Shown here piece by piece: positions 1,995 through 20,498 of a DNA stretch of 20,498 bases. The translations under genes were made by a program, and so were the position numbers. How positions within the stretch are numbered: the first letter of the stretch is position 1; the number at the start of each line of letters is the position of its first letter. The notes beneath the pieces were generated by a model. It saw only the letters and a list, made by a program, of their open reading frames with translations. It made no database searches and was not told where the DNA came from. The DNA is from Candidatus Nanohalobium sp. Lineage in GTDB: Archaea; Nanohalarchaeota; Nanosalinia; Nanosalinales; Nanosalinaceae. The stretch is taken from the NCBI GenBank assembly GCA_042217555.1, contig JBDGSL010000084.1:1-20498 (forward strand). The letters run 5' to 3'.

Positions 1995-3134
1995 ATGAAA
2001 GATCCGATTTATGAGTTGAAACTTGAAAGTAGAACCGACAGGGGTAAGGAGATTTACGAGTTTAAGTCTTCTGATGGTGTACCGTCAAAAGACAACTTCA
2101 GGGATTCTGAAATTGCACTGGCAGACACAGTAAATCCAGCACCTGAAGACGATATCTTGGTAATTCAGTCAGGATATGGATTCCTTCCAGTGATACTCGC
2201 AGACCAAGCTCCAAATGGAAAGACAATAGCAGGAGAAACTAGCGATCGTGCATATCAACTCACCAAATTAAATCTAGATAACAACAGAGTTGAAAATTGT
2301 ACACCTCAGAAGGTAGCTTTCTACACTGAAATCGATAAAAAGTTCGATAAGGTAGTGTACGCTCCGCGAGGTTACGAACCTGTGGACGTCGTAAAAAACA
2401 GGCTTTCAAATGCTGTTAAACTACTGGAAAACGGCGGAGAAATACTCATAGCCGGGAAGAAAACCTCCGGTATCAATCGATACCAGAGCCACCTCAAATC
2501 GTTTGCAGGAAATACTGAGAAATTAGACCAGCAAGGAAAACAGAAAGTCTACAGATACACCAAAAAAGGAGAATTTGAACCAGAAAATATAGATATAGAA
2601 ACCAACTTCAAAGCAAAAGTCGATGAGATAGAACTTGAATTCACTGCCTGCGAAGGACTCTTCTCCCCAAAAAGCCTAGACGATGGTAGCAGACTTCTGA
2701 TAGAAAACGTACAGGTCGACGAAGAAGATGAAGTACTAGACCTTGCCTGTGGATACGGAATAGTCGGGATATTCATGCAGAAGCTTCATGGCAGTAAGAT
2801 TTCTATGACCGACGACAATAGGATAGCGACACACTTCTGTAAGAAGAATGCAGAGGAAACAAATGTCGAATGTAAAGTCAAGAACAGAGATTGCCTTGAC
2901 GGTTTTCCGAACAAAAAATTCGACGCTATAGTCTCCAACCCGCCAACACATCAAGGAGAGGAAATCACTGATGAAATGTTCGAGCAATCTTACAAGTCAC
3001 TACGAAACGGTGGGAGTCTATATTTGGTCTATAACCGGAACATGAGATTCGAAGAAAAGCTCTCGAAGATGTTCAAAGAGACAGAAACACTTGAGAAAGC
3101 AGACAATTACCTTGTTCTGAAAGCGATAAAGTAA
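1995..3134 (+). CDS. RsmC/RlmG-like two-domain SAM-dependent (MTS family) methyltransferase, paralog 1
   Basis: GLFSPKSLDDGSRLL, LDLACGYG (motif I) and IVSNPPTH (motif IV), plus a degenerate N-terminal MTase domain (QSGYG). Confidence 0.85.
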   Translation: MKDPIYELKLESRTDRGKEIYEFKSSDGVPSKDNFRDSEIALADTVNPAPEDDILVIQSGYGFLPVILADQAPNGKTIAGETSDRAYQLTKLNLDNNRVENCTPQKVAFYTEIDKKFDKVVYAPRGYEPVDVVKNRLSNAVKLLENGGEILIAGKKTSGINRYQSHLKSFAGNTEKLDQQGKQKVYRYTKKGEFEPENIDIETNFKAKVDEIELEFTACEGLFSPKSLDDGSRLLIENVQVDEEDEVLDLACGYGIVGIFMQKLHGSKISMTDDNRIATHFCKKNAEETNVECKVKNRDCLDGFPNKKFDAIVSNPPTHQGEEITDEMFEQSYKSLRNGGSLYLVYNRNMRFEEKLSKMFKETETLEKADNYLVLKAIK

Positions 3135-8513: not shown

Positions 8514-9353
8514 CTAATTGAATTCTAGTTCAAACTTGTTTCTTCTTCCTTCCTGGCCTTTAGGCAATGTATTTTCGGTCTGGTAGTGTTTGCCTATAAT
8601 TAAAGCCTCTAATGTTTTTCTTGAGTCTTTAACTCGGGCAATCGAGAACTTGGCGTCTTCACCGAATTTCTTTTCGTGCTTGTAGAGTCTCTGTTTGATG
8701 TTCTTGGCTTGACCGATGTAGGCGAGTGGTGGTGCGTGGTTTTCAAACCATATCCTGTATACTGCTGTACCTGGCTCCACTTCCAATCTGTTGACCAATC
8801 TATCAGGTTGACTCCAGTCTAAACCCATCCACCTGCTATCAAGAACGTTTTCTTGTCTAGAATAATCAATTGAGTCTAGTTCAGTATGCATAGCGGCCCG
8901 TTCTTCTAAAGACTTCAAAACATGACTACGATCTAGGTTTACGGTTGGCGCAGTATCTTGACTCTGAATGTGTAAAGCAACCAGCAAGTATTCTAAACCG
9001 TATAGATCTATTTCCGACCTTGCAATGTTAGGATTCGCCACGCTGACTTGGAAGCCTTCACCAATTTTCTCCTTCAACTTCCATAGATGTGGTGCGGCAG
9101 TATGCGGAGCATTTCCTGGCTGTTCATCTTTATGCGTGTTATTGGCTAGCGATCTGACTCTTTCACGTAGTTTCCTACCCGTCTGACCTACGTATTCTAG
9201 GCCTTCTCTATCCTTATGTTTGACTCTATAAAGTCCGGAAGTTTTCGGCAGGTCGGATAAAGCAGGATTGTCACAGTGTAGCTGAGTCCAGTTGGTCCAT
9301 TCTAGATCCGCCCAGTCGCCAGAAGTTACTTCGGACTTATTTTCGAGATCCAT
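8514..9353 (-). CDS. Tandem GIY-YIG nuclease-domain protein
   Basis: Two modules, 'WADLEW...GLYRV...EYVGQT...LRERV' and 'WMGLDW...AVYRI...AYIGQA...IKQRL'. Likely start is the ATG at 9353. Confidence 0.8.
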   Translation of the reverse strand: MDLENKSEVTSGDWADLEWTNWTQLHCDNPALSDLPKTSGLYRVKHKDREGLEYVGQTGRKLRERVRSLANNTHKDEQPGNAPHTAAPHLWKLKEKIGEGFQVSVANPNIARSEIDLYGLEYLLVALHIQSQDTAPTVNLDRSHVLKSLEERAAMHTELDSIDYSRQENVLDSRWMGLDWSQPDRLVNRLEVEPGTAVYRIWFENHAPPLAYIGQAKNIKQRLYKHEKKFGEDAKFSIARVKDSRKTLEALIIGKHYQTENTLPKGQEGRRNKFELEFN

Positions 9354-9368
9354 GAAAAATCGTCTAAA

Positions 9369-9378
9369 GTTAATTAAC
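9369..9378. promoter_or_regulatory. Palindromic GTTAATTAAC; candidate bidirectional TATA element
   Basis: A perfect 10-bp palindrome within the 46-bp gap between the divergent ATGs at 9353 and 9400. Confidence 0.5.
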
Positions 9379-9399
9379 GTGGCTAGAGTTTTGAATTGT

Positions 9400-9849
9400 A
9401 TGGAGATAGGGCTGATAAGCTGCACAAAATCGAAGAAGGACGAGAAATCTCAGCCAAAAGAACTGTATATGGAGTCACAGCTGTTCCGCAAGAAACGGAA
9501 GTACGCAGAGAAACATCACGACAAGTGGTACATACTATCAGCTAAACATGGACTACTTGACCCTGAAGGTCAGCCAATAGAACCGTATGATGATACCCTT
9601 TCCGGTGCGAAGATCGGTAGAAAACGTGAGTGGAGTAAGAAGATTTTCAGGGAGATGAAACGAAGAGGCATTCTGGATGACGAGCTTGTCTTTCACGCTG
9701 GAAAAGATTACTACGGCTGTATCGTGCCTTTACTAGATAAAGAAGATGTTTCCTACCGTATACCTACTAGTGGACTTGGTATTGGGGAAAAGCTTGCGTG
9801 GTATACCGACCACCAGGTTAAACTTTTAACAAGATGCTTAATTTTCTAA
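9400..9849 (+). CDS. DUF6884-like (YaaA-related) protein
   Basis: 'ISCTKSK...PKELY...LFRK...WYILSAKHGLL...IEPYD...HAGKDY...GLGIGE' pattern. Likely start is the ATG at 9400. Confidence 0.75.
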   Translation: MEIGLISCTKSKKDEKSQPKELYMESQLFRKKRKYAEKHHDKWYILSAKHGLLDPEGQPIEPYDDTLSGAKIGRKREWSKKIFREMKRRGILDDELVFHAGKDYYGCIVPLLDKEDVSYRIPTSGLGIGEKLAWYTDHQVKLLTRCLIF

Positions 9850-10231: not shown

Positions 10232-10302
10232 TGGCAGGAGGCGGATTTGAACCGCCGTCCGCACGTTCCGAACGTGCGATGATACCGCTACACTATCCCG
10301 CC
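10232..10302 (-). tRNA. tRNA-Pro(CGG), atypical (A37, G1-C72, G4-U69); no encoded CCA
   Basis: GGCGGGA TA GTGTAGCGGTATCAT C GCACG TTCGGAA CGTGC GGAC GGCGG TTCAAAT CCGCC TCCTGCC A forms a complete 71-nt cloverleaf; anticodon at 10270-10268. Confidence 0.9.
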
Positions 10303-10325
10303 AAAAAATTAGGAGAAAGAAGTTG

Positions 10326-11546
10326 TTAGCTCATTTCTTCCACCACTTCTCCTGCTTCAACTTCCTTCTTTTCTCCACTTCTGGACTCTATCTCAATCTT
10401 TCCGTCCTCAAGGAAGTTACTGCCCACGATAACTTTGCGGTTTACTCCGAGAAGATCAGAATCCCTGAACTGCTCTCCTGTGGACCGCTGACCGTCATAA
10501 AGCAGAACGTCTACTCCCTGCCCCTGTAGCTCTTGATAGATGCTCTCTGCTTTCTCCGTTACTTCCTCTTCGTGCCTTGCGGCAATCACAGAAAAGTTGA
10601 AAGCAGACACTTCTTCATTCCAAGTGATGCCATTCTGATCGTGATTCTGCTCTATGATCGCTGAAATCAATCGACTTACTCCGATCCCATAACTGGCCAT
10701 AACCACGTTCTCTGTATCTCCCTCTTCGGTATCGAAGGTTAGATCCATAGCTTCGCTGTATCGGGTTCCAAGTTTGAAACAGTGACCTATCTCTATACCG
10801 TTCACTTCACGGAGCTCTGAACCGCAGTTGCCGCAGTCGGCAGTTTCCAAGTCTTTGGTCCCAAATTCACAGTTGTCACATTTGAGGTATGTGTCGCTTC
10901 CGATCTCTGCTTCTGCCATAAATTCGTGGCTTTGACTTCCTCCCATAGAGCCGTTGTCAGCCGCAACTACAGAATACTCAAGACCGAGCCTATCGAAGAT
11001 AGTTCGGTAGGCGTTGAGGAACTCACGGTACTTCAACTGTAAACCTTCTCTGTCTTTGTGGAAGCTATAGGCGTCCTTCATAACGAACTCTTTCGCCCGC
11101 AAAAGACCGTTTCTGGCGTGGTCGTCCCTGAACTTTCTACCAATCTGGTAGATCGTTAGGTCGAGATCCCTGTAGCTCCTGATATACTTTCTTGTGAGTT
11201 CTACGGATGCTTCTTCGTGTGTTGCGGCGATGGTGAAGTCTTTGTCGTCTCTGTTCTTGAAGTTGAAGAACTCTTCTCCTTCAAAGTTCTTCCAACGCCC
11301 TGACTTCTCCCACAGTTCACTGGTCTGGAGAAGGTTCATCTTCACTTCTTGCCCGATTTCGTCCATTTCTTCTCTGATCACTGATTCTATGTTATTCAGA
11401 ACTCTCTGACCGAGATGGGAGAATCCGAAGGTTCCAGAGCCGTAGTTATGGACAAGTCCTGCTTGAACCGCCAGTTCAGCACTTTTACAGTGCGTATCGG
11501 CCTCCGTTTCCTTGGAGCTGGTTACGAAGAGATTACTGCGTCTCAC
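10326..11546 (-). CDS. proS: Proline--tRNA ligase, bacterial-type, short form lacking the INS editing domain
   Basis: MRRS...AGL...GSG N-terminus, LWEKSGRW, THEE, motif 2 YQIGRKFRD...EFVMKDAYSFH, GIEIGHCFKLGTRYS and motif 3 SYGIGVSR. Only a CxxC..CxxC loop sits where INS would be. GGTGAT SD before the GTG. Confidence 0.93.
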   Translation of the reverse strand: MRRSNLFVTSSKETEADTHCKSAELAVQAGLVHNYGSGTFGFSHLGQRVLNNIESVIREEMDEIGQEVKMNLLQTSELWEKSGRWKNFEGEEFFNFKNRDDKDFTIAATHEEASVELTRKYIRSYRDLDLTIYQIGRKFRDDHARNGLLRAKEFVMKDAYSFHKDREGLQLKYREFLNAYRTIFDRLGLEYSVVAADNGSMGGSQSHEFMAEAEIGSDTYLKCDNCEFGTKDLETADCGNCGSELREVNGIEIGHCFKLGTRYSEAMDLTFDTEEGDTENVVMASYGIGVSRLISAIIEQNHDQNGITWNEEVSAFNFSVIAARHEEEVTEKAESIYQELQGQGVDVLLYDGQRSTGEQFRDSDLLGVNRKVIVGSNFLEDGKIEIESRSGEKKEVEAGEVVEEMS

Positions 11547-11597
11547 CGCAGATCACCAGAAGTTGAGAAAGAATTTTTGTTAATAGATTTTGAGTGG

Positions 11598-11654
11598 TTA
11601 TCGAATCTGTTGTCGTGGTGGAACGTATCCACCTGTAGTTGAAACTTTGTTCAT
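11598..11654 (-). CDS. Putative leader peptide (uORF) of proS, MNKVSTTGGYVPPRQQIR
   Basis: An 18-codon ORF on the same strand, ending 51 nt before proS. Tandem CCA CCA codons lie on the 3' arm of the hairpin GGTGGA-TACGT-TCCACC. Confidence 0.5.
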   Translation of the reverse strand: MNKVSTTGGYVPPRQQIR

Positions 11655-11774
11655 AGAAATCACGGAAAATTCGGTATTCTGGCGACTAAAAGAACTCTCA
11701 AATATTCTACTGCCGAGGAACGTAGTCACCAGACATAACTCAAGAAGTTTTGGTGAATCTCTTAAATGTTTTGC

Positions 11775-12917
11775 CTATTTCGTAGCTCTGGTAACGGCGT
11801 AGTTGTCTTTCTTTTCCAGTATTTCTACCTTCTTGAATATTTGTTCTAACTGTTGTTCGTAGTTCATATTTTGGTTGTAGACGATGTAGAGTTCTCCACC
11901 TTTCCTTAATCTTTGATAGGAGTTCTGGAATATTTCGTCTGTTATTCCTTTGCCTTGATGTGTTGGAGGGTTAGATACTATCTTGTCGAATTTCTTTCCC
12001 TCAAATGTGTCGAGGCAGTCGGCGTGTTCCAAACTGTATTTTTCTATTTCGTTAAGTTGAAGGTTTCTTCCCGTCTGTTTTACTGCTTTCAGGTTGTTGT
12101 CGCTAAAGTAGATTTCAGGATCGTAGAGCTTTTTGAGGAAGATTCCGATAGCTCCATATCCGCAGGCCACGTCCCAAACTTTGTCTCCTGAATCTGCCTC
12201 TATATTTTCTATAAGTAACCTGCTTCCTTTGTCCAGAGAGGTAGGTGAGAACAGCCCTTCCACTGTCTCAAAATTGGCTTTAACACCATTTATTTCTGCT
12301 TCAAAACTTCTCTCAACGTCCACTTTTCGGTCTTCTATTTCTCCCTGTTTACTGTATCTGTATACGTGATAACCGTCCCTACTGTTAATCTTATCGAGTT
12401 CGCCGTCAAACTGTTTGAGCCAATCCTTGTACCTGTTGAGCCCTTCTTTCTTGCTGGAGGCAAGGTATAGTTCGCCGTCTTCTTCCAGCAAGTTGATTGC
12501 TTCTGTCAGGTTGTTTTTGACTATATCGGTGTTGGCGTATGGTTTCGGTGCGTAGAGAACCTTGTCGAAACTCTGCTCTATATCCTTTGGAGAGCTTATC
12601 TTCTTGCTTTGAGTATTTTCTATATCGTTTAGTTTGAGGTTGTGTTTGGTTATTTTGTGGGCTCTGTCGCTGGATTCTGCTAAAACTGTCTTTCCTTCAG
12701 GGGTGTAGTCTGCGAATATTACTCCGAGAAAACCGTAGCCCGGATACAGAACCAGTAAATCTTCCTCCTCTCCTGTTTCGACTGTATCAGCTAATAGAAG
12801 CTCTGCTTTCCTAAATCCTTCTTTGGATGCTACGCCGTCAGCAGTCTCAAAACTGTAAACCTTGCTTCCTTGATCGGTTTCAGATTTTAGTTTGAAACTG
12901 TACTGAAAACTGTCCAT
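11775..12917 (-). CDS. RsmC/RlmG-like two-domain MTS methyltransferase, paralog 2
   Basis: GLFSPTSLDKGSRLL, WDVACGYG and IVSNPPTHQG; colinear with 1995..3134. TTTAAA about 25 nt before the ATG suggests a leaderless transcript. Confidence 0.85.
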   Translation of the reverse strand: MDSFQYSFKLKSETDQGSKVYSFETADGVASKEGFRKAELLLADTVETGEEEDLLVLYPGYGFLGVIFADYTPEGKTVLAESSDRAHKITKHNLKLNDIENTQSKKISSPKDIEQSFDKVLYAPKPYANTDIVKNNLTEAINLLEEDGELYLASSKKEGLNRYKDWLKQFDGELDKINSRDGYHVYRYSKQGEIEDRKVDVERSFEAEINGVKANFETVEGLFSPTSLDKGSRLLIENIEADSGDKVWDVACGYGAIGIFLKKLYDPEIYFSDNNLKAVKQTGRNLQLNEIEKYSLEHADCLDTFEGKKFDKIVSNPPTHQGKGITDEIFQNSYQRLRKGGELYIVYNQNMNYEQQLEQIFKKVEILEKKDNYAVTRATK

Positions 12918-13006
12918 TAACCTTGGTTTCTTGCTTGTATCTTTAAATCAGAAATTGGCTGGAAAACTGGCTTAAAATTATAACAGCCTGAAAGAAAATC
13001 TTCTCT

Positions 13007-13537
13007 ATGGCTGGAACAGTATTCCTTGAAGGCGAAAAAATCAACTTGAGGACAATAGAAGAGGAAGATATAGAATTTCTACGAGACGGGGTAAATCACC
13101 CTGAAGTCCGCGTATATATGGGTAACAGAAAACCTCAAAACTACGAAAACGAAGAAGAGTTCTTTGAAGAACAAATCTGCGGAGAAGAAACAGTAGACCT
13201 GATGATTTCCAGAGATAGAGAAAAACTGGGCATAATCAGTCTAATGCCACAAGGAGATGACGCAGAAAAACTTGCCGAAATCGGTATCTGGATACACCCA
13301 GAACACCACGGAAACGGATACGGCACAGAAGCCTCCCAACTAATCACAGACTACGCCTTCAACCAATTAAACTACCATAAAATATACGCACGAGCTTATC
13401 AAGGTAACAAGGCGTCGCAGAGTGTCTGGGAAAAACTTGGGTTTGATAAGGAAGGAGTATTCAAAGACCACACCTTTACACAGGGCGAATACAAAGATGT
13501 CGTTTACTACGGTGTTTTAGAAGGTGATTGGCAGTGA
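13007..13537 (+). CDS. GNAT N-acetyltransferase, RimJ/RimL family
   Basis: 'LRTIEEED...AEIGIWIHPEHHGNGYGTEA...YAFNQLNYHKI...NKASQSVWEKLGF..EG'. Confidence 0.9.
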   Translation: MAGTVFLEGEKINLRTIEEEDIEFLRDGVNHPEVRVYMGNRKPQNYENEEEFFEEQICGEETVDLMISRDREKLGIISLMPQGDDAEKLAEIGIWIHPEHHGNGYGTEASQLITDYAFNQLNYHKIYARAYQGNKASQSVWEKLGFDKEGVFKDHTFTQGEYKDVVYYGVLEGDWQ

Positions 13538-14073
13538 CAGAAACCAAAAGTAAGTTTATGGAGTGGGATGATGTAGTTCTCCGACCTGTAGAAATGGATG
13601 ACGCAGAGTTTATCGCAGAAACAATCAGTCACGGCGAGGTCAGAGCATACCTTGGTAGAGCTCCGAGACCTATTAATGTATCACAGGAGGAAGAGTATAT
13701 TGAGGAGTTTAGTTCAGAGGATGACAGCGTTCATTTCCTTATAGAGTATCAAGGAGAAAAAGTCGGACACATATTCTTGGGTGGTTTGGAAAGTGATTAT
13801 GGTCGTAGCCACGTAGGATACTTTATACACCCAGAATATCACGGACAAGGAATCGGCACAAAGAGCTTGAAAATGGTCGTAACCTACACTTTCGAGACCC
13901 TGAATCGACACAAGATTAGAGGAGGATACTTGGAAGGAAACCCTGCCTCAAGACGAGTAATGGAAAAAGCAGGATTCCAAGAAGAAGGTACGGAAAGGCA
14001 CTATAAGTATGTAGACGGAGAATGGAAAAACGTCACTTGGATGAGCATACTGGAAAGTGAATACTATGAATAG
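13534..14073 (+). CDS. GNAT N-acetyltransferase, RimJ/RimL family (tandem paralog)
   Basis: 'VGYFIHPEYHGQGIGT...NPASRRVMEKAGFQEEG'. The GTG at 13534 overlaps the upstream TGA; alternative starts are 13528 and 13558. Confidence 0.88.
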   Translation: MTETKSKFMEWDDVVLRPVEMDDAEFIAETISHGEVRAYLGRAPRPINVSQEEEYIEEFSSEDDSVHFLIEYQGEKVGHIFLGGLESDYGRSHVGYFIHPEYHGQGIGTKSLKMVVTYTFETLNRHKIRGGYLEGNPASRRVMEKAGFQEEGTERHYKYVDGEWKNVTWMSILESEYYE

Positions 14074-14094
14074 TCTAAATAAAAAATTGATACT

Positions 14095-14832
14095 ATGAGA
14101 CCAGAAGAAGACGCTTACGGAGAAATACTTCACGCTATCCATACAGGTTCCGACCCTGAAGCAGGAGAAATTATAGAAAGAGACGACGGATTCATTCAAC
14201 ACACAGGATCAGCTAAAACCTATTTTCAAGAGTACAAGGAATGGTCTGAACAAGCTCAAGAAGCCATCCAACACGCACACGGAACCGTTTTAGATATTGG
14301 TTGTGGGGCAGGAAGACACGCACTATACTTACAAAACGAAAAAGGATTAACTGTTCGTGGAATAGATGTTTCTCCAAAAGCTATCGAAGTAGCCTCTGAT
14401 AGAGGGGTTGAGAAAACAAGCGTAGCTGGAATCAAAGATATTTCTGAACTATCTGAATCACCATATGACACTATAGTAATGCTTGGAAACAATCTTGGAT
14501 TATTAGGGACAAAACCCATTGAGCACCTTAACAAACTGGCAGACGCAACAACTGAAAACGCAACTCTGATCGGCCAAACCAGAGAGGCAACAGCCACAGA
14601 AAATCCAGAACACGTTCAATACCATCACTATAACAAAGTCCGAAACCGCCGACCCGGATGCCTACGCTTCCGCATACGCTACAAACACTTCAAAACACCA
14701 TTCTACGACTACCTCTACCTTGACAAAAACGAACTGAAAGAAATACTGGAACAAACCCCTTGGAAACTAAACACCACATACACTTCTGAAGAAACAACAG
14801 CATACACAGTAATCCTCGAGAAATCAAGATGA
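14095..14832 (+). CDS. Class I SAM-dependent methyltransferase
   Basis: VLDIGCGAGRHA, GIDVSP and YDTIVMLGNN. Confidence 0.88.
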   Translation: MRPEEDAYGEILHAIHTGSDPEAGEIIERDDGFIQHTGSAKTYFQEYKEWSEQAQEAIQHAHGTVLDIGCGAGRHALYLQNEKGLTVRGIDVSPKAIEVASDRGVEKTSVAGIKDISELSESPYDTIVMLGNNLGLLGTKPIEHLNKLADATTENATLIGQTREATATENPEHVQYHHYNKVRNRRPGCLRFRIRYKHFKTPFYDYLYLDKNELKEILEQTPWKLNTTYTSEETTAYTVILEKSR

Positions 14833-14839
14833 ACTTACT

Positions 14840-15298
14840 ATGAGAATAAGACGCTATCAACCTGAAGACAGTATTGGACCGTTGATCAGCAGATCTGTCG
14901 AAGATATTGATCCAGAGCATTATTCAAATGAACAGCAAAGGCATTTAGAAGAAGTAATCCCTGAAATGAATTTGGAGTTTGCTGAAAAAGACAGATACAA
15001 CTATTTCGTAGCCGTAGAAGATGACGAAATTATAGGAGTAGCGGGATATCAAAGCGAAAGTGGTACCGTAGCAGGAATCTTTGTAGATCCAGAACTCAAG
15101 GGTTCAGGCATAGGGTCGAAGCTAATGGATAGGATTGAGGAGGATGCCCAGTCAGAAGGGTTAGAGGAGATGGAGACTCTTGCCTCTTTGGAAGCAGTAG
15201 AGTTCTACAAGAAAAATAGCTACAAAGTTACAGAGGAAAAGAAACACGACATAGAAGGCAAAGACATAGGAATCAAAGTAATGAAGAAACAACTATAG
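14840..15298 (+). CDS. GNAT N-acetyltransferase
   Basis: 'IFVDPELKGSGIGSKLM...ASLEAVEFYKKNSY' acetyl-CoA binding motifs. Confidence 0.85.
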   Translation: MRIRRYQPEDSIGPLISRSVEDIDPEHYSNEQQRHLEEVIPEMNLEFAEKDRYNYFVAVEDDEIIGVAGYQSESGTVAGIFVDPELKGSGIGSKLMDRIEEDAQSEGLEEMETLASLEAVEFYKKNSYKVTEEKKHDIEGKDIGIKVMKKQL

Positions 15299-15306
15299 AG
15301 ATTGAA

Positions 15307-15765
15307 TTAAGTTCTCAAGTCTTCTTTTATCATTCTGACAGAGTCTTTGGAGTAGTTTTCTCCATTCTTGTAGTCTTGTATTGCGGCGAGTATGTAAGAT
15401 GCTCTTAAGTCGAGGTCTTCGATTTCTTGCTCTGTAAACCAGCCGTAATCGATTACGGTGTCTTCCTCTCTAATACTGACTTCGCCACTTTGAATCTGGG
15501 AGTGGTAGACGAAGTTGACGATGTTGTTTGGATCTTCTGATTCTGGAGGAATATATGTTTTCACGAGGCTTTCGGGTTCTACTGTCAGTCCTGTTTCCTC
15601 TTTCGCCTCACGCTTGGCTCCTTCTACTGGTGTTTCTCCGATTTCGAGGCTTCCAGCAGGAAGGTTCCATTCTCCTTTAACGTGTTCTTTTCCTTCTTGG
15701 ATCAGTAGGTATTTGTCGTCTTTTTCTATCAGGTTGGCGGCTACTACCACAAATTTTTGAGCCAT
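15307..15765 (-). CDS. NUDIX hydrolase
   Basis: Nudix box GSLEIGETPVEGAKREAKEETGL. Confidence 0.9.
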   Translation of the reverse strand: MAQKFVVVAANLIEKDDKYLLIQEGKEHVKGEWNLPAGSLEIGETPVEGAKREAKEETGLTVEPESLVKTYIPPESEDPNNIVNFVYHSQIQSGEVSIREEDTVIDYGWFTEQEIEDLDLRASYILAAIQDYKNGENYSKDSVRMIKEDLRT

Positions 15766-16179: not shown

Positions 16180-16326
16180 GGGCCCGTAGCTCAGCTTGGA
16201 CAGAGCATTCGGCTTCGGAACCTTAAGTTCTCCGATCTCTTGAGGAGAACAAGGAAAGAGAAGCGAACTTTGTGAGCTTCGACAGAAGTTACCGAAAGGT
16301 CCAGGGTTCAAATCCCTGCGGGCTCG
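16180..16326 (+). tRNA. tRNA-Arg(UCG) with a 72-nt intron (16219-16290) at position 37/38
   Basis: Exon 1 is GGGCCCGTAGCTCAGCTTGGACAGAGCATTCGGCTTCGG and exon 2 is ACCGAAAGGTCCAGGGTTCAAATCCCTGCGGGCTCG. The BHB-like junction has a CTTC/GAAG helix with GG|A and TT|A bulges. Confidence 0.92.
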
Positions 16327-16429: not shown

Positions 16430-16770
16430 TCACTTGACGCAACCCGACGGATTTGATATCTTCGCAGAAAACGAAAATCTGCGATAGATTTTCTTGGAGA
16501 AGATTTCTTACTGAATCTTTGAATCTCTGGTTTTTGGCGGGTTTAAAATTTGAGATTCTTACTGAGGTTTTCTGTGTCTCGGAAGTTCGTTTTTTGACTC
16601 CTGGTGCTTTGTTTCTGTTTTTCCTACCGGTGTATTGTTTTCTAGTTGTGTGTAGGTGAGAGTAGTTTTTTGGTGTTTTTATAAAGATGGGAAGCTCTGT
16701 TTTTGTTTAGATGGTATTGTTTAGCCGTTTGAAGGATTTGGTTTCCCGGCTATTTGATGAGGTGGTTGTT

Positions 16771-17964
16771 ATGTCTGATGATAAGAGTTCGGAGTCTCGT
16801 GACGATAAGAAAAAGCAGAAATCTGGTAAGAAGCAGAAGGTTCAGTTTCCACAGTATTTTCAGCAGCAGAGGCCTTCAAGGAGTAAGAATCCTAACAGTA
16901 CTAACTTGAAGACTCCTGTTATGAGGGGTGTTGTTGTTTCCAAGTTTGATGGAGACCGGATCTGGGTTGAGGCGTCGGGTAATATGAAGGGCCGTTACGG
17001 AGTTGAGGTGCCGAAGGGTTACGATCCAGAGGACTTCCAGCCAGGGACAGAGGTTGCTCTTGATCCCAACAGTTTCAAAGTAACTGATATTGTCGGTAAA
17101 GGCCAGGACGCTGAGTTCCAGCCTGTTGACACAGATGTCACTTTCCAGGATATCGGAGGCCTGGATCACGTGATTCAAAGCCTTTCATCAAACGTTGGCG
17201 CCCAGTTAAACTCGAACAAGCTGGATAAGATCCAGAGCTGGGGTATGGAAATGGATAAAAGTATACTTCTTATCGGCAGGCCGGGAACAGGTAAAACCCA
17301 TCTTGTGAAGGCGTTAAGCAATGAGTACGATGCTGACATGTTTATGATCAACGGGCCCCAGCTTGTTGAGAAGTTCATAGGTGAAGGCGCGAAGAAGGTT
17401 AAACGGCTTTACGAACAGGCACGTGCATCGGACAAGCCTGCTATCGTGTTTATAGATGAGATAGACGCTGTTGCGAAGAAACGTCTTGACGACAGGAGAC
17501 ATGGAGGCGAAGAAGTTGAGAGAACAATGTCTCAGCTTCTCTCTGAGCTTGACGGCCTTGACAGTGAGGAAGGAAACGTTATCAGTATATTTGCCTCGAA
17601 TACTCCTGATATTATAGATCCTGCACTGCTTAACAGGACTTCTGCGATCGAGGTACCTGTTCCGGACAGAGAATCCAAGAGAGAGATTCTGGAAGTTCAC
17701 ACCCGGGATATGGACCTGGAAAGCAGCGTTGATCTTGATGTCGTGGCAGAGGAACTGGAAGACGAGTTCACAGGCAGAGATATCAAGCAAGTTGTCAAGC
17801 AGGCAGCCGTAAACGCTATAGACAGCACTGAAAACCCTGAAGATGCAGAGGCAGACATGACGGACTTCACGGATGCTGTACAGGACCTCAAGGAAGGAAA
17901 CCTGGGTATTGAGAAGGACTTCCTTGGCACAACCAGCGAACATCCAAACGAAATGTTCGCCTAA
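16771..17964 (+). CDS. Proteasome-activating nucleotidase-like AAA+ ATPase (divergent PAN paralog)
   Basis: OB-like segment (PGTEVALDPNSF), TFQDIGGL, Walker A GRPGTGKT, pore loop LVEKFIGEGA, Walker B VFIDEID, EVERTMSQLLSELDG and C-terminal MFA. GAGGTGG SD before the ATG at 16771. Confidence 0.8.
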   Translation: MSDDKSSESRDDKKKQKSGKKQKVQFPQYFQQQRPSRSKNPNSTNLKTPVMRGVVVSKFDGDRIWVEASGNMKGRYGVEVPKGYDPEDFQPGTEVALDPNSFKVTDIVGKGQDAEFQPVDTDVTFQDIGGLDHVIQSLSSNVGAQLNSNKLDKIQSWGMEMDKSILLIGRPGTGKTHLVKALSNEYDADMFMINGPQLVEKFIGEGAKKVKRLYEQARASDKPAIVFIDEIDAVAKKRLDDRRHGGEEVERTMSQLLSELDGLDSEEGNVISIFASNTPDIIDPALLNRTSAIEVPVPDRESKREILEVHTRDMDLESSVDLDVVAEELEDEFTGRDIKQVVKQAAVNAIDSTENPEDAEADMTDFTDAVQDLKEGNLGIEKDFLGTTSEHPNEMFA

Positions 17965-18004
17965 AAACCTGGTTTCTCTCCCTTTTAACAAGGTGTTTTT
18001 CTCA

Positions 18005-18214
18005 ATGGCTGAGAAAGTGAACAAGGAGTTCAAACTTGATGGAGAAGACGTCGCTGAACTACTGAGGGATGTGGCGGACGCATTAGAAGAGAAAGACCAG
18101 TTGAATATGGAGTTCGGTGACACCCGTCTTATACAGCCGTTCTCCGATATCATCCCTCTGAGAGTTTTCCAGGATGAAAACGGCACAGAGATAGGTTTCA
18201 AGCTTCAACAGTAG
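18005..18214 (+). CDS. Small amphi-Trp-domain-like protein
   Basis: 'EDVAELLRDVADALEE' amphipathic helix followed by beta strands; the usual terminal Trp is absent. AGGTG SD upstream. Confidence 0.5.
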   Translation: MAEKVNKEFKLDGEDVAELLRDVADALEEKDQLNMEFGDTRLIQPFSDIIPLRVFQDENGTEIGFKLQQ

Positions 18215-18640
18215 TCAGTTAAGAAGGCTTGAAAGTTCACCATTTACTTCTTCAAAAGACTCTCCACCATACCCTGTCTCCGGCCATAGATCATAACCGT
18301 CTTCATCTTCTCGAAGTACTATATGCGTGTGCACATGCTTTACAGATTGCTGAGCCGCCCCTCCGTTAGCTGAGAGCATGTTTACACCAGTATAACTTGT
18401 TTTTTCTTTTATACTGTCGGCTATCTCCTTTATCTCTCCAAAAAAGGTTTCAACTTCCTCTCTGTCCATTTCAAAGATGTTTTCATAATGTTCTACAGGT
18501 ACTACAAGTAGATGGCCTTCCTTTAAGGCATCGCTTTCCAGTGTAGGGAATACTGCTATCTCTTCGTTTCTGTAAACTATTTTCTCATCTTCTTCACGTA
18601 TTATACTGCAGAAGATGCATTTTTGCTTAACTTTTTCCAT
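18215..18640 (-). CDS. HIT family hydrolase
   Basis: CIFC, GHLLVVP..H and AQQSVKHVHTHIV histidine triad. Start is the ATG at 18640 or 18679. Confidence 0.9.
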   Translation of the reverse strand: MEKVKQKCIFCSIIREEDEKIVYRNEEIAVFPTLESDALKEGHLLVVPVEHYENIFEMDREEVETFFGEIKEIADSIKEKTSYTGVNMLSANGGAAQQSVKHVHTHIVLREDEDGYDLWPETGYGGESFEEVNGELSSLLN

Positions 18641-18725
18641 GTAAGCAGCTTTCAACTTGGCTCTGAAACCTTCAAACATAACCCTGTTTTTTGTTGTCTA
18701 TGTTTAAACCGGTTTTGGAACATTG

Positions 18726-18995
18726 CTACTCTTCTCTATCTGTTATCTTCTTTGATGCGTGGTTGATCAGGTCTTCTATCCTGTTTTCTTTTTCGTAGGT
18801 GCTGGAGGATGTGAGGAAGTCCTGAGCAGCTTTGTAGAGATATCCGTTAAAGTCCTGAAGTTCCTGCAGTGAGTCTACTTCGGCCTCTTCCATTATATCT
18901 TCCAGCAACTGGTACAGCCTGAACCTTTTCACACCTACGTCTTCCAGCTCTCTGATTTCTTCAAGTCTTTCCTGCAGTTCTTTCATACTTTTCAT
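18726..18995 (-). CDS. Hypothetical helical protein
   Basis: Acidic 89-aa ORF with an ATGA overlap with the upstream gene. Confidence 0.65.
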   Translation of the reverse strand: MKSMKELQERLEEIRELEDVGVKRFRLYQLLEDIMEEAEVDSLQELQDFNGYLYKAAQDFLTSSSTYEKENRIEDLINHASKKITDREE

Positions 18996-19678
18996 CCTTC
19001 TTTTCTCGTGATTATGGTCTTCAGTGATTTAAAAGTGTATATAGCGGCTTTTCTAAGTTTTACAGGGTCTCTGATGTAGATTGATGCGTATACTATCCCT
19101 GCTGCACCAGCTATAGTCTCTGTAGCCGGTGAGAGGGAACCAGTTTCTTCTCTGAATCCCTGTATGAACCGGTCTCTTGTTTCCTGTTCTTTTAGAGATA
19201 CGAACGTAATGACTGACAGACGGTCCATCAAACGGTTTAAAGGAGTATCTCTGAACTCTGTGAACTCTGCGTCAATACAGTAGAGGCCGTCTTCTGCCTG
19301 TATGAAGTTGTGAGGGTTGTAGTCGATGAGGTACACGTTTTGGGATTCAAGTTCTTTCATGGTTGAGGCCATCCTGTGACCTGTCTCGAAGGGTCTGTTT
19401 TCCAGTATGTTGTCAAGTGTTTCCCCATTTATCTTCCGGAAACGGACTTCTCTACCGTTTCTTGAAAGTATCTCAGGGAAGTTCAGTTCAAGATCTTTTT
19501 CCCTCACCTTTCTCTCGTTCTTGATTCTTCTGCTGGCTGACAAGGGTGTGAGCTGGAGGTACGTGAAACGTATCAGAGTAACTAAAAGTATAAGGGAGGA
19601 GATATGTGAGTAAATCTTTCGTACCGTGTTCTCCTCAATGTACACCTGGTTTATGTCACCTTCTGCTGCTTCTTTCAT
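18992..19678 (-). CDS. Protein-kinase-like fold protein (RIO/Bud32/Kdo-like), divergent
   Basis: 'VYLIDYNPHNFI' resembles a catalytic loop (DxxxxN) and 'YCIDAEF' resembles DFG; preceded by 'RRIKNE...FPEIL'. Confidence 0.5.
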   Translation of the reverse strand: MKEAAEGDINQVYIEENTVRKIYSHISSLILLVTLIRFTYLQLTPLSASRRIKNERKVREKDLELNFPEILSRNGREVRFRKINGETLDNILENRPFETGHRMASTMKELESQNVYLIDYNPHNFIQAEDGLYCIDAEFTEFRDTPLNRLMDRLSVITFVSLKEQETRDRFIQGFREETGSLSPATETIAGAAGIVYASIYIRDPVKLRKAAIYTFKSLKTIITRKEG

Positions 19679-19699
19679 CCGGCTGCCTCAAAAAAACAC

Positions 19700-20498
19700 T
19701 TAGTTCCCCAGTTCCTCCATGATCTTTTCACGCGCAGTCTTAGGATCTGCCTTACCCTGAGACAGGTTCATAACCTGGCCTACAAGGAAGTTGATAGCAC
19801 CGTCATCTCCCGAGTTGTAGTCCTCAACAGCTTCAGGATTCTCATTGATCGCTTCCTTAATGAATTCGTCGACTTCGTCTTCTCCTGCCTTTTTCAGATC
19901 CTGTTCTTCAACAATCTCTTCGGGATCACGGGGTTCTTCCACGATCTCACGTAGAACCTTCTCAGCATTCCTGTCAGAAATCTCTTCTTCCTCAAGAAGG
20001 CCTACAATGTATCCGATCCATTCAAGCTCAAGGCCTCCACGGTATTCTTTATCGTTATAGTTCAGAACCTTTCTGAGGTCTCCAGTCATGAAGGAAGCGG
20101 TAACTTCTGTATCATGGTCCTGTGTCAGTTCTTCGAAGTCATCCGCCATCTCCTGATCTGCGACCAGAGATTCAACAGCCTTCTCTGAGAGACCGTACTC
20201 TTCAAGGAAACGTTCGAACTTCTCATGCGGAAGCTCCGGGATCTCCTGTCTAAGCTCCTCTCTGAACTCTTCGTCAAGTTCCTGTCTTGTCAGGTCAGGG
20301 TCAAAGATGTAACCGTAGTCTTTCTCGGTTTCTTTCTCCCTCATCTTCTCTGTGATTTCCTGTCCTGCGTTGTAGCTTCTTGTCTGCTGTGTAACTTCAC
20401 GTCCTCTCTTCTTTAACTGTTTCTGACGTGTGATCTCATAGGACAAGGCCTTTTCTATTCCAGCGGTTCCCGTAATGTTTTTGACTTCGACGCGCTGG
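19700..20498 (-). CDS. gatB: Asp-tRNA(Asn)/Glu-tRNA(Gln) amidotransferase subunit B, 3' part (continues beyond the window)
   Basis: The frame is open to the edge: RVEVKN...ALSYEITRQ, MREKE...DYGY..DPDL, IPELP, and YqeY-like tail NFLVGQVM...GKADP. Confidence 0.93.
   Translation of the reverse strand, partial: QRVEVKNITGTAGIEKALSYEITRQKQLKKRGREVTQQTRSYNAGQEITEKMREKETEKDYGYIFDPDLTRQELDEEFREELRQEIPELPHEKFERFLEEYGLSEKAVESLVADQEMADDFEELTQDHDTEVTASFMTGDLRKVLNYNDKEYRGGLELEWIGYIVGLLEEEEISDRNAEKVLREIVEEPRDPEEIVEEQDLKKAGEDEVDEFIKEAINENPEAVEDYNSGDDGAINFLVGQVMNLSQGKADPKTAREKIMEELGN

Follow-up and report, generated by a model that had tools for sequence, protein, structure and literature searches.

Positions 1 to 20,498 of contig JBDGSL010000084.1 (assembly GCA_042217555.1, Candidatus Nanohalobium sp.), hereafter the window, hold a module composed of a gene for a second prolyl-tRNA synthetase (ProRS2, encoded by proS2), the leader ahead of it and a tRNA-Pro gene behind it. 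Based on sequence comparisons, it is quite probable that this leader works as a +1 frameshift relay similar to that of prfB, which would sense a shortage of charged tRNA-Pro and induce a backup synthetase that can be built without proline. With ample Pro-tRNA, the ribosome would read the Pro codon of an upstream open reading frame (uORF) and terminate 51 or 160 nt before proS2. When Pro-tRNA is scarce, the A site would be empty, an internal Shine-Dalgarno (SD) sequence would pair with the 16S rRNA at short spacing, and the tRNA-Val would slip from GUU to UUC, after which the shifted ribosome would terminate at a stop codon overlapping the gene start and re-initiate on proS2. Such re-initiation at an overlapping stop and start occurs in haloarchaea. 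The proline-free ProRS2 could still be synthesized in full while Pro-tRNA is short and, aided by the additional tRNA-Pro gene, would recharge the host's ordinary G1-C72 tRNA-Pro.

The proS2 leader is best read as one branch, that for proline, of a sensor design used throughout the lineage. With slightly less confidence, we consider it likely that Nanohaloarchaea use a general sensor for synthetase and biosynthesis genes, a leader of seven codons in which a hungry codon would lead, through an SD-driven +1 shift, to the gene start and, jointly with this, that the proline version stacks its sites two or three deep and controls a backup synthetase from which proline has been purged, paralleled by a lysine-poor LysRS.

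Leader architecture and putative +1 relay frames

An earlier sequence-only reading of this stretch had described three elements on one strand, namely a uORF with two consecutive Pro codons, a bacterial-type proS and a tRNA-Pro gene, with the proS2 stop codon 23 nt before the tRNA, and these elements were confirmed (Table 1). Two features go beyond that reading, a second uORF (11707-11736) and the complete absence of proline from ProRS2. The Pro-Pro uORF is present, at 11598-11654, but the pair is not the conserved sensor, given that a second Pro follows the sensor Pro in only 4 of 35 uORFs. Genome-wide, TTTAA peaks at -35 to -26 relative to start codons, and a leaderless transcript beginning at the ATG of uORF1 is predicted.

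Table 1. Coordinates of the leader, proS2 and tRNA-Pro features in the window
Feature	Position	Strand	Remarks
TATA-like box	11761-11766	-	30 nt upstream of uORF1
uORF1	11707-11736	-	9 codons; G-x-x-V-P motif; single Pro codon (codon 7); conserved in relatives
Predicted shift site 1	11715-11730	-	SD-like GGTGA; P-site GTT 11719-11721; sensor CCT 11716-11718, then C
Helix P1	11678-11733	-	11723-11733 pairs with 11678-11688
+1 relay frame 1	11655-11720	-	Open, proline-free, in frame with uORF2; direct translation agrees
SD-like GTGAT ahead of uORF2	11659-11663	-	
uORF2	11598-11654	-	18 codons; contains Pro-Pro
Predicted shift site 2, folded as hairpin H2	11617-11633	-	SD-like GGTGG; P-site GTT 11622-11624; sensor CCA 11619-11621
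Conserved TCAAAA(C/T)C element	11586-11593	-	Possibly a weak internal promoter
SD GGTGAT of proS2	11552-11557	-	
+1 relay frame 2	11543-11623	-	26 codons, proline-free; TGA 11543-11545 overlaps the proS2 GTG start; direct translation agrees
proS2	10326-11546	-	Bacterial-type ProRS, 406 aa; GTG start; zero prolines; no INS domain; Cys4 mini-insert; short motif-2 loop
Spacer proS2-tRNA	10303-10325	-	23 nt, pyrimidine-rich, no evident TATA box
tRNA-Pro(CGG)	10232-10302	-	Extra, intronless; G1-C72, A73, short D-loop, A37 at 10267; starts 23 nt past the proS2 stop

All 35 uORFs carry GGTG at -9 from the P-site codon; the search rule fixed the amino acid pattern only, and GGT was found in every one. 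As the SDs at gene starts of the genome peak at -11 to -14, the leader GGTG stands at the short edge of the spacing. The P-site codon and the base that follows are GTT_C in 30 uORFs, ATT_C in three, CTT_C in one and GTC_C in one, while TTT_N occupies the slippery position of the non-proline leaders described below. The sensor codon is CCG, CCA or CCT in 35/35 and never CCC, so that the +1 codon is never Pro again, as expected considering that a +1 shift at CCC would meet Pro a second time. In Haloferax, ribosomes pause most strongly with Pro codons in the A and P sites, according to passages of PMC7261190. The distance from the SD-ATG to the motif was a multiple of three in 13/13 cases (18, 21 or 27 nt).

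The relay frames were tested, reading from the Val codon, in 24 leaders, of which 13 are tandem and 13 stand before proS2. Starting in uORF1, the +1 frame runs without a stop and in register with the following uORF in 12/13 tandem leaders, compared to 0/13 for the +2 frame; in the remaining one (G072), the next uORF is reached through a third shift site without an ATG of its own. The +1 stop of the last uORF is a TGA that exactly overlaps the gene start in 14/24 leaders (12/13 before proS2, plus the proCBA leader of G029 and that of G052) and falls within -15 to +5 of it in 22/24, with G009 (-30) and G016 (assembly gap) as the exceptions, whereas the +2 frame reaches 1/24 and 3/24, respectively. 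Open relay segments number 30/32, with 7.7 expected from shuffles. Proline is found at 2 of 826 codons of the +1 relays, both at the extra site of G072, versus 27 of 814 in the +2 frames. In none of the 24 leaders is the +1 frame in frame with the main gene. The last +1 relay extends as a long open reading frame (ORF) at two loci, L013 (G002) and L302 (G072; 99 codons).

Across 12 leaders, compensatory changes in helix P1 amounted to 16 cells changed on both sides versus 6.8 in shuffles, and its covariation score was reached by 0/500 shuffles, a figure that does not stand for a probability since the structure was derived from the same, related, sequences. An alignment-free partner-swap test of P1 was mixed: its own partner ranked among the best three for 11/19 leaders and was not above average in several. 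No Rfam family other than tRNA exceeded its gathering score in the window, which gives no support to a T-box or other known RNA in the leader. A switch sequestering the ribosome-binding site was likewise not supported, as stalled-ribosome folding had no consistent effect on that site, the opening energy here being 12.8-13.1 kcal/mol in all six states.

The proline-free synthetase and leaders elsewhere in the lineage

ProRS2 scored 428.9 bits against the bacterial-type model TIGR00409 (cut-off 306.7) and 109.1 against the archaeal-type TIGR00408 (cut-off 437), in agreement with the type given by the sequence-only reading, which had also proposed a search for a second, archaeal-type proS. This gene (proS1) was found, full length, on contig C27 of the same genome, making proS2 the second ProRS gene. 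The fold of ProRS2 was assigned from sequence alone. Its catalytic core is kept, with R140, E153, MKDAYS, HEE, the GG-x-x-S-x-EF loop and G287-x-G289-x-x-R292 invariant or nearly so across 35 sequences. No PF04073 match, i.e., no INS editing domain, was found in ProRS2, and its alignment to 5ucm jumps about 170 residues; the mini-insert has its four cysteines at C223, C226, C238 and C241. In sequence family, motifs 2 and 3 and the anticodon domain, ProRS2 resembles both the INS-less bacterial-type ProRS (NF008979; PDB 2i4l) and the INS-containing ones (5ucm, 5znj and 2j3l), but differs from all of these in its shorter motif-2 loop, its Cys4 mini-insert, the lack of proline and a host tRNA-Pro with G1-C72.

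None of the 406 residues of ProRS2 is a proline, where 13.9 were expected (P about 7e-7), and among the 443 ORFs of at least 300 aa in the genome the only two without proline are the two proS2 copies. Proline is absent from 12/12 genome copies of ProRS2 and from 64/71 close database hits, compared to 7-20 residues in each of the sister-clade proteins (18 + 16), with one more, P0196, having zero. At ten columns that hold Pro in at least 13 of 19 sister sequences it is replaced throughout the ProRS2 clade, including at A108 of ATHEE, so that ATHEE in place of PTHEE is attributed to this removal of proline. P0196 and P0290 are two more proline-free ProRS, among 148 distant representatives; the position of P0290 outside the halophile clade suggests an independent loss.

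One scan for such leaders gave 39 hits, of which about 16 look like background (reversed control, about 19), and 20 regions were inspected. The same Pro leader precedes the archaeal-type proS in some genomes. The gene proA occurs in 2/70 genomes, both times behind a Pro leader, which thus precedes both proC-proB/proA operons found (L287:2235-5765 of G029 and L315 of G016); in these, the leader is followed by a proC-proB fusion and proA, and the proteins are proline-poor, with 6-7 Pro in 430-517 aa. Downstream of the G029 operon lie a tRNA-binding-domain gene and a gene with a tRNA-Pro body, a TGA anticodon and broken stems. At L308, L309 and L310 (family f4), a single Pro leader stands before a NIF3/DUF34 gene upstream of proS1, and of the 252 aa of the NIF3 protein in G046 only two are Pro.

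A search for the pattern ending in HTT with another sensor codon returned 107 hits across 45/50 genomes (reversed pattern, 9). From the 52 hits examined, one at a contig end was left aside, and the downstream ORFs of the other 51 were tested. The gene matched the amino acid of the sensor codon in 46/51 cases, namely serS (11), glyS (11), thrS (9), tyrS (8), lysS (4), hisS, valS and ilvA (one each), and a mismatched synthetase was found behind the sensor codon in 0/51. The five unmatched ORFs (L343, L357, L368, L372 and L377) belong to no family or to an unrelated one, and some of these fail to match because their start was mis-picked. The +1 frame of the non-proline leaders ends within -12 to +17 of the picked start in 45/51, the +2 frame in 3/51. 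Examples are the single leaders before glyS (Gly sensor; G000:C3:51530) and thrS (Thr sensor; G000:C70:6354), whose +1 frames stop at +10 and +1 relative to the start. In the Ile-codon leader of ilvA (threonine ammonia-lyase; L356:1501-2776), 7 of the 40 codons of the +1 frame are Ile, and this frame stops 66 nt short of the picked start. Lys-codon leaders precede class II LysRS genes (L353, L362, L369 and L371) whose products contain 3, 3, 4 and 11 Lys in about 475 aa, in contrast to the 40 Lys of the class I LysRS of G003, and SerRS and ThrRS behind their own-codon leaders are mildly depleted of their own amino acid.

Alternative explanations and known systems

Several points weigh against the frameshift relay. 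The frameshift, the transcript and the activity of the enzyme are all predictions. Re-pairing from GUU to UUC leaves a first-position mismatch, site 1 of G034 is GTC, which re-pairs poorly, and prfB conserves CUU_U, as described in part of PMC5009743. The assembly yielded no 16S 3' end, and the proposed pairing with the anti-SD is therefore based on SD enrichment. uORF2 has its own SD and ATG, by which ribosomes could enter without the first shift, so that the two sites may not act in series, and the CGG anticodon of the module tRNA does not read the sensor codons of this copy, CCT and CCA. In a second module copy on contig C9, a 55-nt insert displaces the +1 stop to -9. The leader was found at 5/38 proS1 loci in one scan, with one more in another, and at these loci the overlap is less tight, at -30 to -2. 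No depletion of their own amino acid is seen in the GlyRS and TyrRS encoded behind such leaders. Moreover, related genomes are no independent samples.

Instead of a change of frame, stalling at the Pro codon could regulate through RNA structure, premature termination of the FttA/aCPSF1 type or mRNA protection. P1 covaries, H2 is conserved, FttA is encoded in the genome, and protection by ribosomes against aCPSF1 is discussed as a possibility in passages of PMC8116511. However, when the leaders were folded with ribosome footprints in place, the energy needed to open the main start region did not change consistently among the results listed, no terminator-like hairpin was found on the minus strand, and stalling leaves unexplained the open, proline-free +1 frames that end at the start codon, so we regard it as unlikely. 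An explanation compatible with the frameshift relay, differing from it in the trigger, is that resistance is the main purpose, with ProRS2 escaping a natural inhibitor that acts on the archaeal-type enzyme, while the leader senses the resulting lack of Pro-tRNA. Families of the GNAT, S66 peptidase, phosphotransferase and HIT type can detoxify aminoacyl-adenylate mimics. Several proS2 copies lie amid GNAT acetyltransferases, an S66 peptidase, phosphotransferases and a HIT protein, and ProRS2 and the proS1 product belong to different enzyme classes; yet other copies adjoin proS1 or lysS and are free of these neighbours, the leader is also found ahead of proline biosynthesis genes, and a total loss of proline is predicted by any shortage of Pro-tRNA, not specifically by an inhibitor. 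As the main purpose, resistance seems to us quite improbable; it could be a selective cause, since a ProRS inhibitor would trigger the same sensor. We find it very hard to believe that the repeated motif serves as the DNA operator to which a dimeric transcription factor binds, with incidental uORFs. Site 2 is a near-palindrome, and the conservation of GGT in 35/35 and of GTT in 30/35 uORFs points to a constraint at the nucleotide level, but the variation in H2 is G-U wobble, the frame is maintained across insertions and deletions, and the codon that follows the slippery one varies with the amino acid to which the downstream gene relates.

Almost no credence can be given to a co-adapted, possibly orthogonal ProRS/tRNA pair, which the sequence-only reading had likened to the Streptomyces ProRSx/tRNA-ProA and had drawn from matching deviations in enzyme and tRNA. 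A tRNA-Pro gene follows proS2 at 6/17 loci (anticodons CGG 3, UGG 2 and GGG 1), and a distinct tRNA body, with a short D-loop, recurs in three of these genes (two in this genome, one in G067). The other 11 loci have no adjacent tRNA-Pro, and the synteny between proS and tRNA, suggested as a check, is limited to those six. The acceptor stem and A73 are those of the host tRNAs, with G1-C72/A73 on all three tRNA-Pro genes that ARAGORN found in the genome, including a UGG gene on C88. The G1-type pattern was detected in 46/50 family genomes, most without proS2; this pattern demands G1 and thus cannot show that C1-G72 genes are absent in the relatives. Among 46 tRNA-Pro genes of the relatives and this genome recovered with it, the canonical G37, also put forward as a check, is present in 45, including that of the C9 module, and A37 in the window copy only. 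Both G1-C72 and A37 were thus correctly seen, but the former is the norm of the lineage and the latter a feature of one copy.

On the enzyme side, the motif-2 loop is indeed one residue short and ATHEE is present. In E. coli ProRS, R144 of this loop reads G72/A73. That E. coli ProRS requires G72 and A73 of tRNA-Pro is described in part of PMC10404621. The Arg reported as missing, the first one in the bacterial RPRFG loop, aligns with His in the window copy but with Arg in 3/12 genome copies. The short loop was found in 5/128 parsed representatives, all from the halophile clade, and is common to that whole clade including its proline-containing haloarchaeal members; it is best read as an adaptation to archaeal G1-C72 tRNA in general. 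With a clade-wide loop, a general G1-C72 and ATHEE reflecting the removal of proline, the deviations were not confirmed as a matched set. The analogy to ProRSx/tRNA-ProA fails, as no anticodon change is involved. Based on passages of PMC10404621, the Streptomyces ProRSx/tRNA-ProX resembles proS2 in being an extra bacterial-type ProRS with a nearby tRNA gene and sporadic distribution, while tRNA-ProX keeps C1:G72 and has non-proline anticodons causing mistranslation, unlike the module tRNA with its cognate anticodons and host-type acceptor stem. We read the proS2-linked tRNA-Pro as a dosage gene, which in view of the spacer we infer to be co-transcribed with proS2; in the complete genome G003, the tRNA-Pro after proS2 is an extra UGG copy. 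By contrast, the suggestion of a stress-induced second proline system has held up, as the module looks built for induction under stress.

Among known systems, the autoregulation of prfB offers the closest analogy in the frameshift relay, with a short zero frame, an internal SD closely preceding a P-site codon that is presumably slippery here as well, a slow codon in the A site as sensor and feedback on the factor that reads this codon (passages of PMC5009743); by this comparison the proS2 leader is a system that would work like it, not a member. Here, the A site holds a sense codon of the limiting amino acid and not a stop codon, the shifted frame would be a relay ending at the gene start and not the product itself, and tandem sites occur in an archaeal host, with the design reused for at least nine amino acids. 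Two cases of leader frameshifting named in parts of the same review, ermCL (induced by telithromycin) and pheL, also have a shift in a leader ORF that carries ribosomes on through the spacer and activates the gene that follows; ermCL, however, responds to a drug through mRNA unfolding, and the pheL shift is described as incidental (PMC5009743), whereas here the frame is under selection to end at the start codon. Unlike attenuators and T-boxes, the leader has no terminator/antiterminator pair and no T-box fold or Rfam match, a single sensor codon per uORF, and an enzyme devoid of its own amino acid. Induction of a synthetase upon scarcity of its charged tRNA would be common to the proS2 leader, the leader-peptide attenuators of pheM-pheST and of the auxiliary trpRS1 of Streptomyces, and auxiliary synthetases with T-boxes.

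A literature search, with most subscription journals outside its coverage, found no description of this enzyme or leader. According to passages of a 2016 review, no hungry-codon frameshift with a useful starvation product was known (PMC5009743), and a 2024 paper notes in part that very few cis-acting RNA controls have been validated in archaea (PMC11549558). If true, this would make the relay the first case in which starvation frameshifting is used productively and across a regulon, as well as the first leader system for sensing amino acids in the archaea, in which the matching of synthetase and biosynthesis genes to amino acid supply is poorly known; both questions are directly testable in Haloferax with a leader of 190 nt and predictable point mutants. 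In addition, a 406-residue enzyme with every conserved proline replaced represents a natural protein-design experiment, and would show how a symbiont dependent on host amino acids may avoid needing proline for its proline-charging enzyme.

Distribution and genomic surroundings of the module

The archaeal-type proS is present in 39/50 family genomes (22/23 among high-quality ones) and proS2 in 13/50, with proS2 not found in the 20 searched genomes of four other families. The ProRS2 is 88% and 80% identical to the copies of two other genera versus 67% to the same-genus copy, with whose genome proS1 shares 85.5% identity. This similarity pattern is at odds with taxonomy and, together with the patchy presence of a second ProRS, points to horizontal spread, as the sequence-only reading had supposed. 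Named ProRS2 homologues have 61-91% identity in Nanohaloarchaea and, more distantly, 44-54% in Halobacteria, the haloarchaeal homologues including those of Halostella, Haladaptatus, Haloferax sp. and Halorubellus. Both groups fall into a single clade (SH-aLRT 99-100), which the short motif-2 loop defines. The ProRS trees were quick and midpoint-rooted, one of them leaving out four fragments and the archaeal-type rows, and a bacterial donor of proS2 was not identifiable from these. In two scans of large collections for proS2 relatives, the matches listed were outgroups and mainly ordinary bacterial proS. Neither a related gene nor the leader was found in viral contigs, plasmids gave no match at 60% identity or more, and in one other archaeal phylum the count was 0/301, which has no bearing on haloarchaea. 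In G002 (L013), only a C-terminal fragment of proS2 remains, ahead of a tRNA-Pro(GGG).

The C9 copy of the module (G000:C9:10618-12230) encodes a ProRS 96% identical to that of the window, with C223S, has different flanks, and its 55-nt insert, a hairpin, breaks the relay frame. The same genome carries two FttA genes and extra proS1 fragments. Given these and the divergent C9 copy, the assembly is probably a mixture of two populations. Short related palindromic inserts recur in the tRNA introns of this genome, upstream of its tRNA genes and in leaders (the C9 leader and spacer, and L287), and resemble miniature mobile elements.

Elsewhere in the window (1995-3134, 8514-9849, 11775-15765 and 16711-20498), genes were identified for two RsmC-like methyltransferases, a GIY-YIG protein, a DUF6884 protein, three GNATs, a NUDIX protein, an AAA ATPase, a HIT protein and gatB/E. 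A tRNA-Arg(TCG) with an intron (16180-16326) was detected only under the intron option, and the contig end shares a 49-nt overlap with contig C78.

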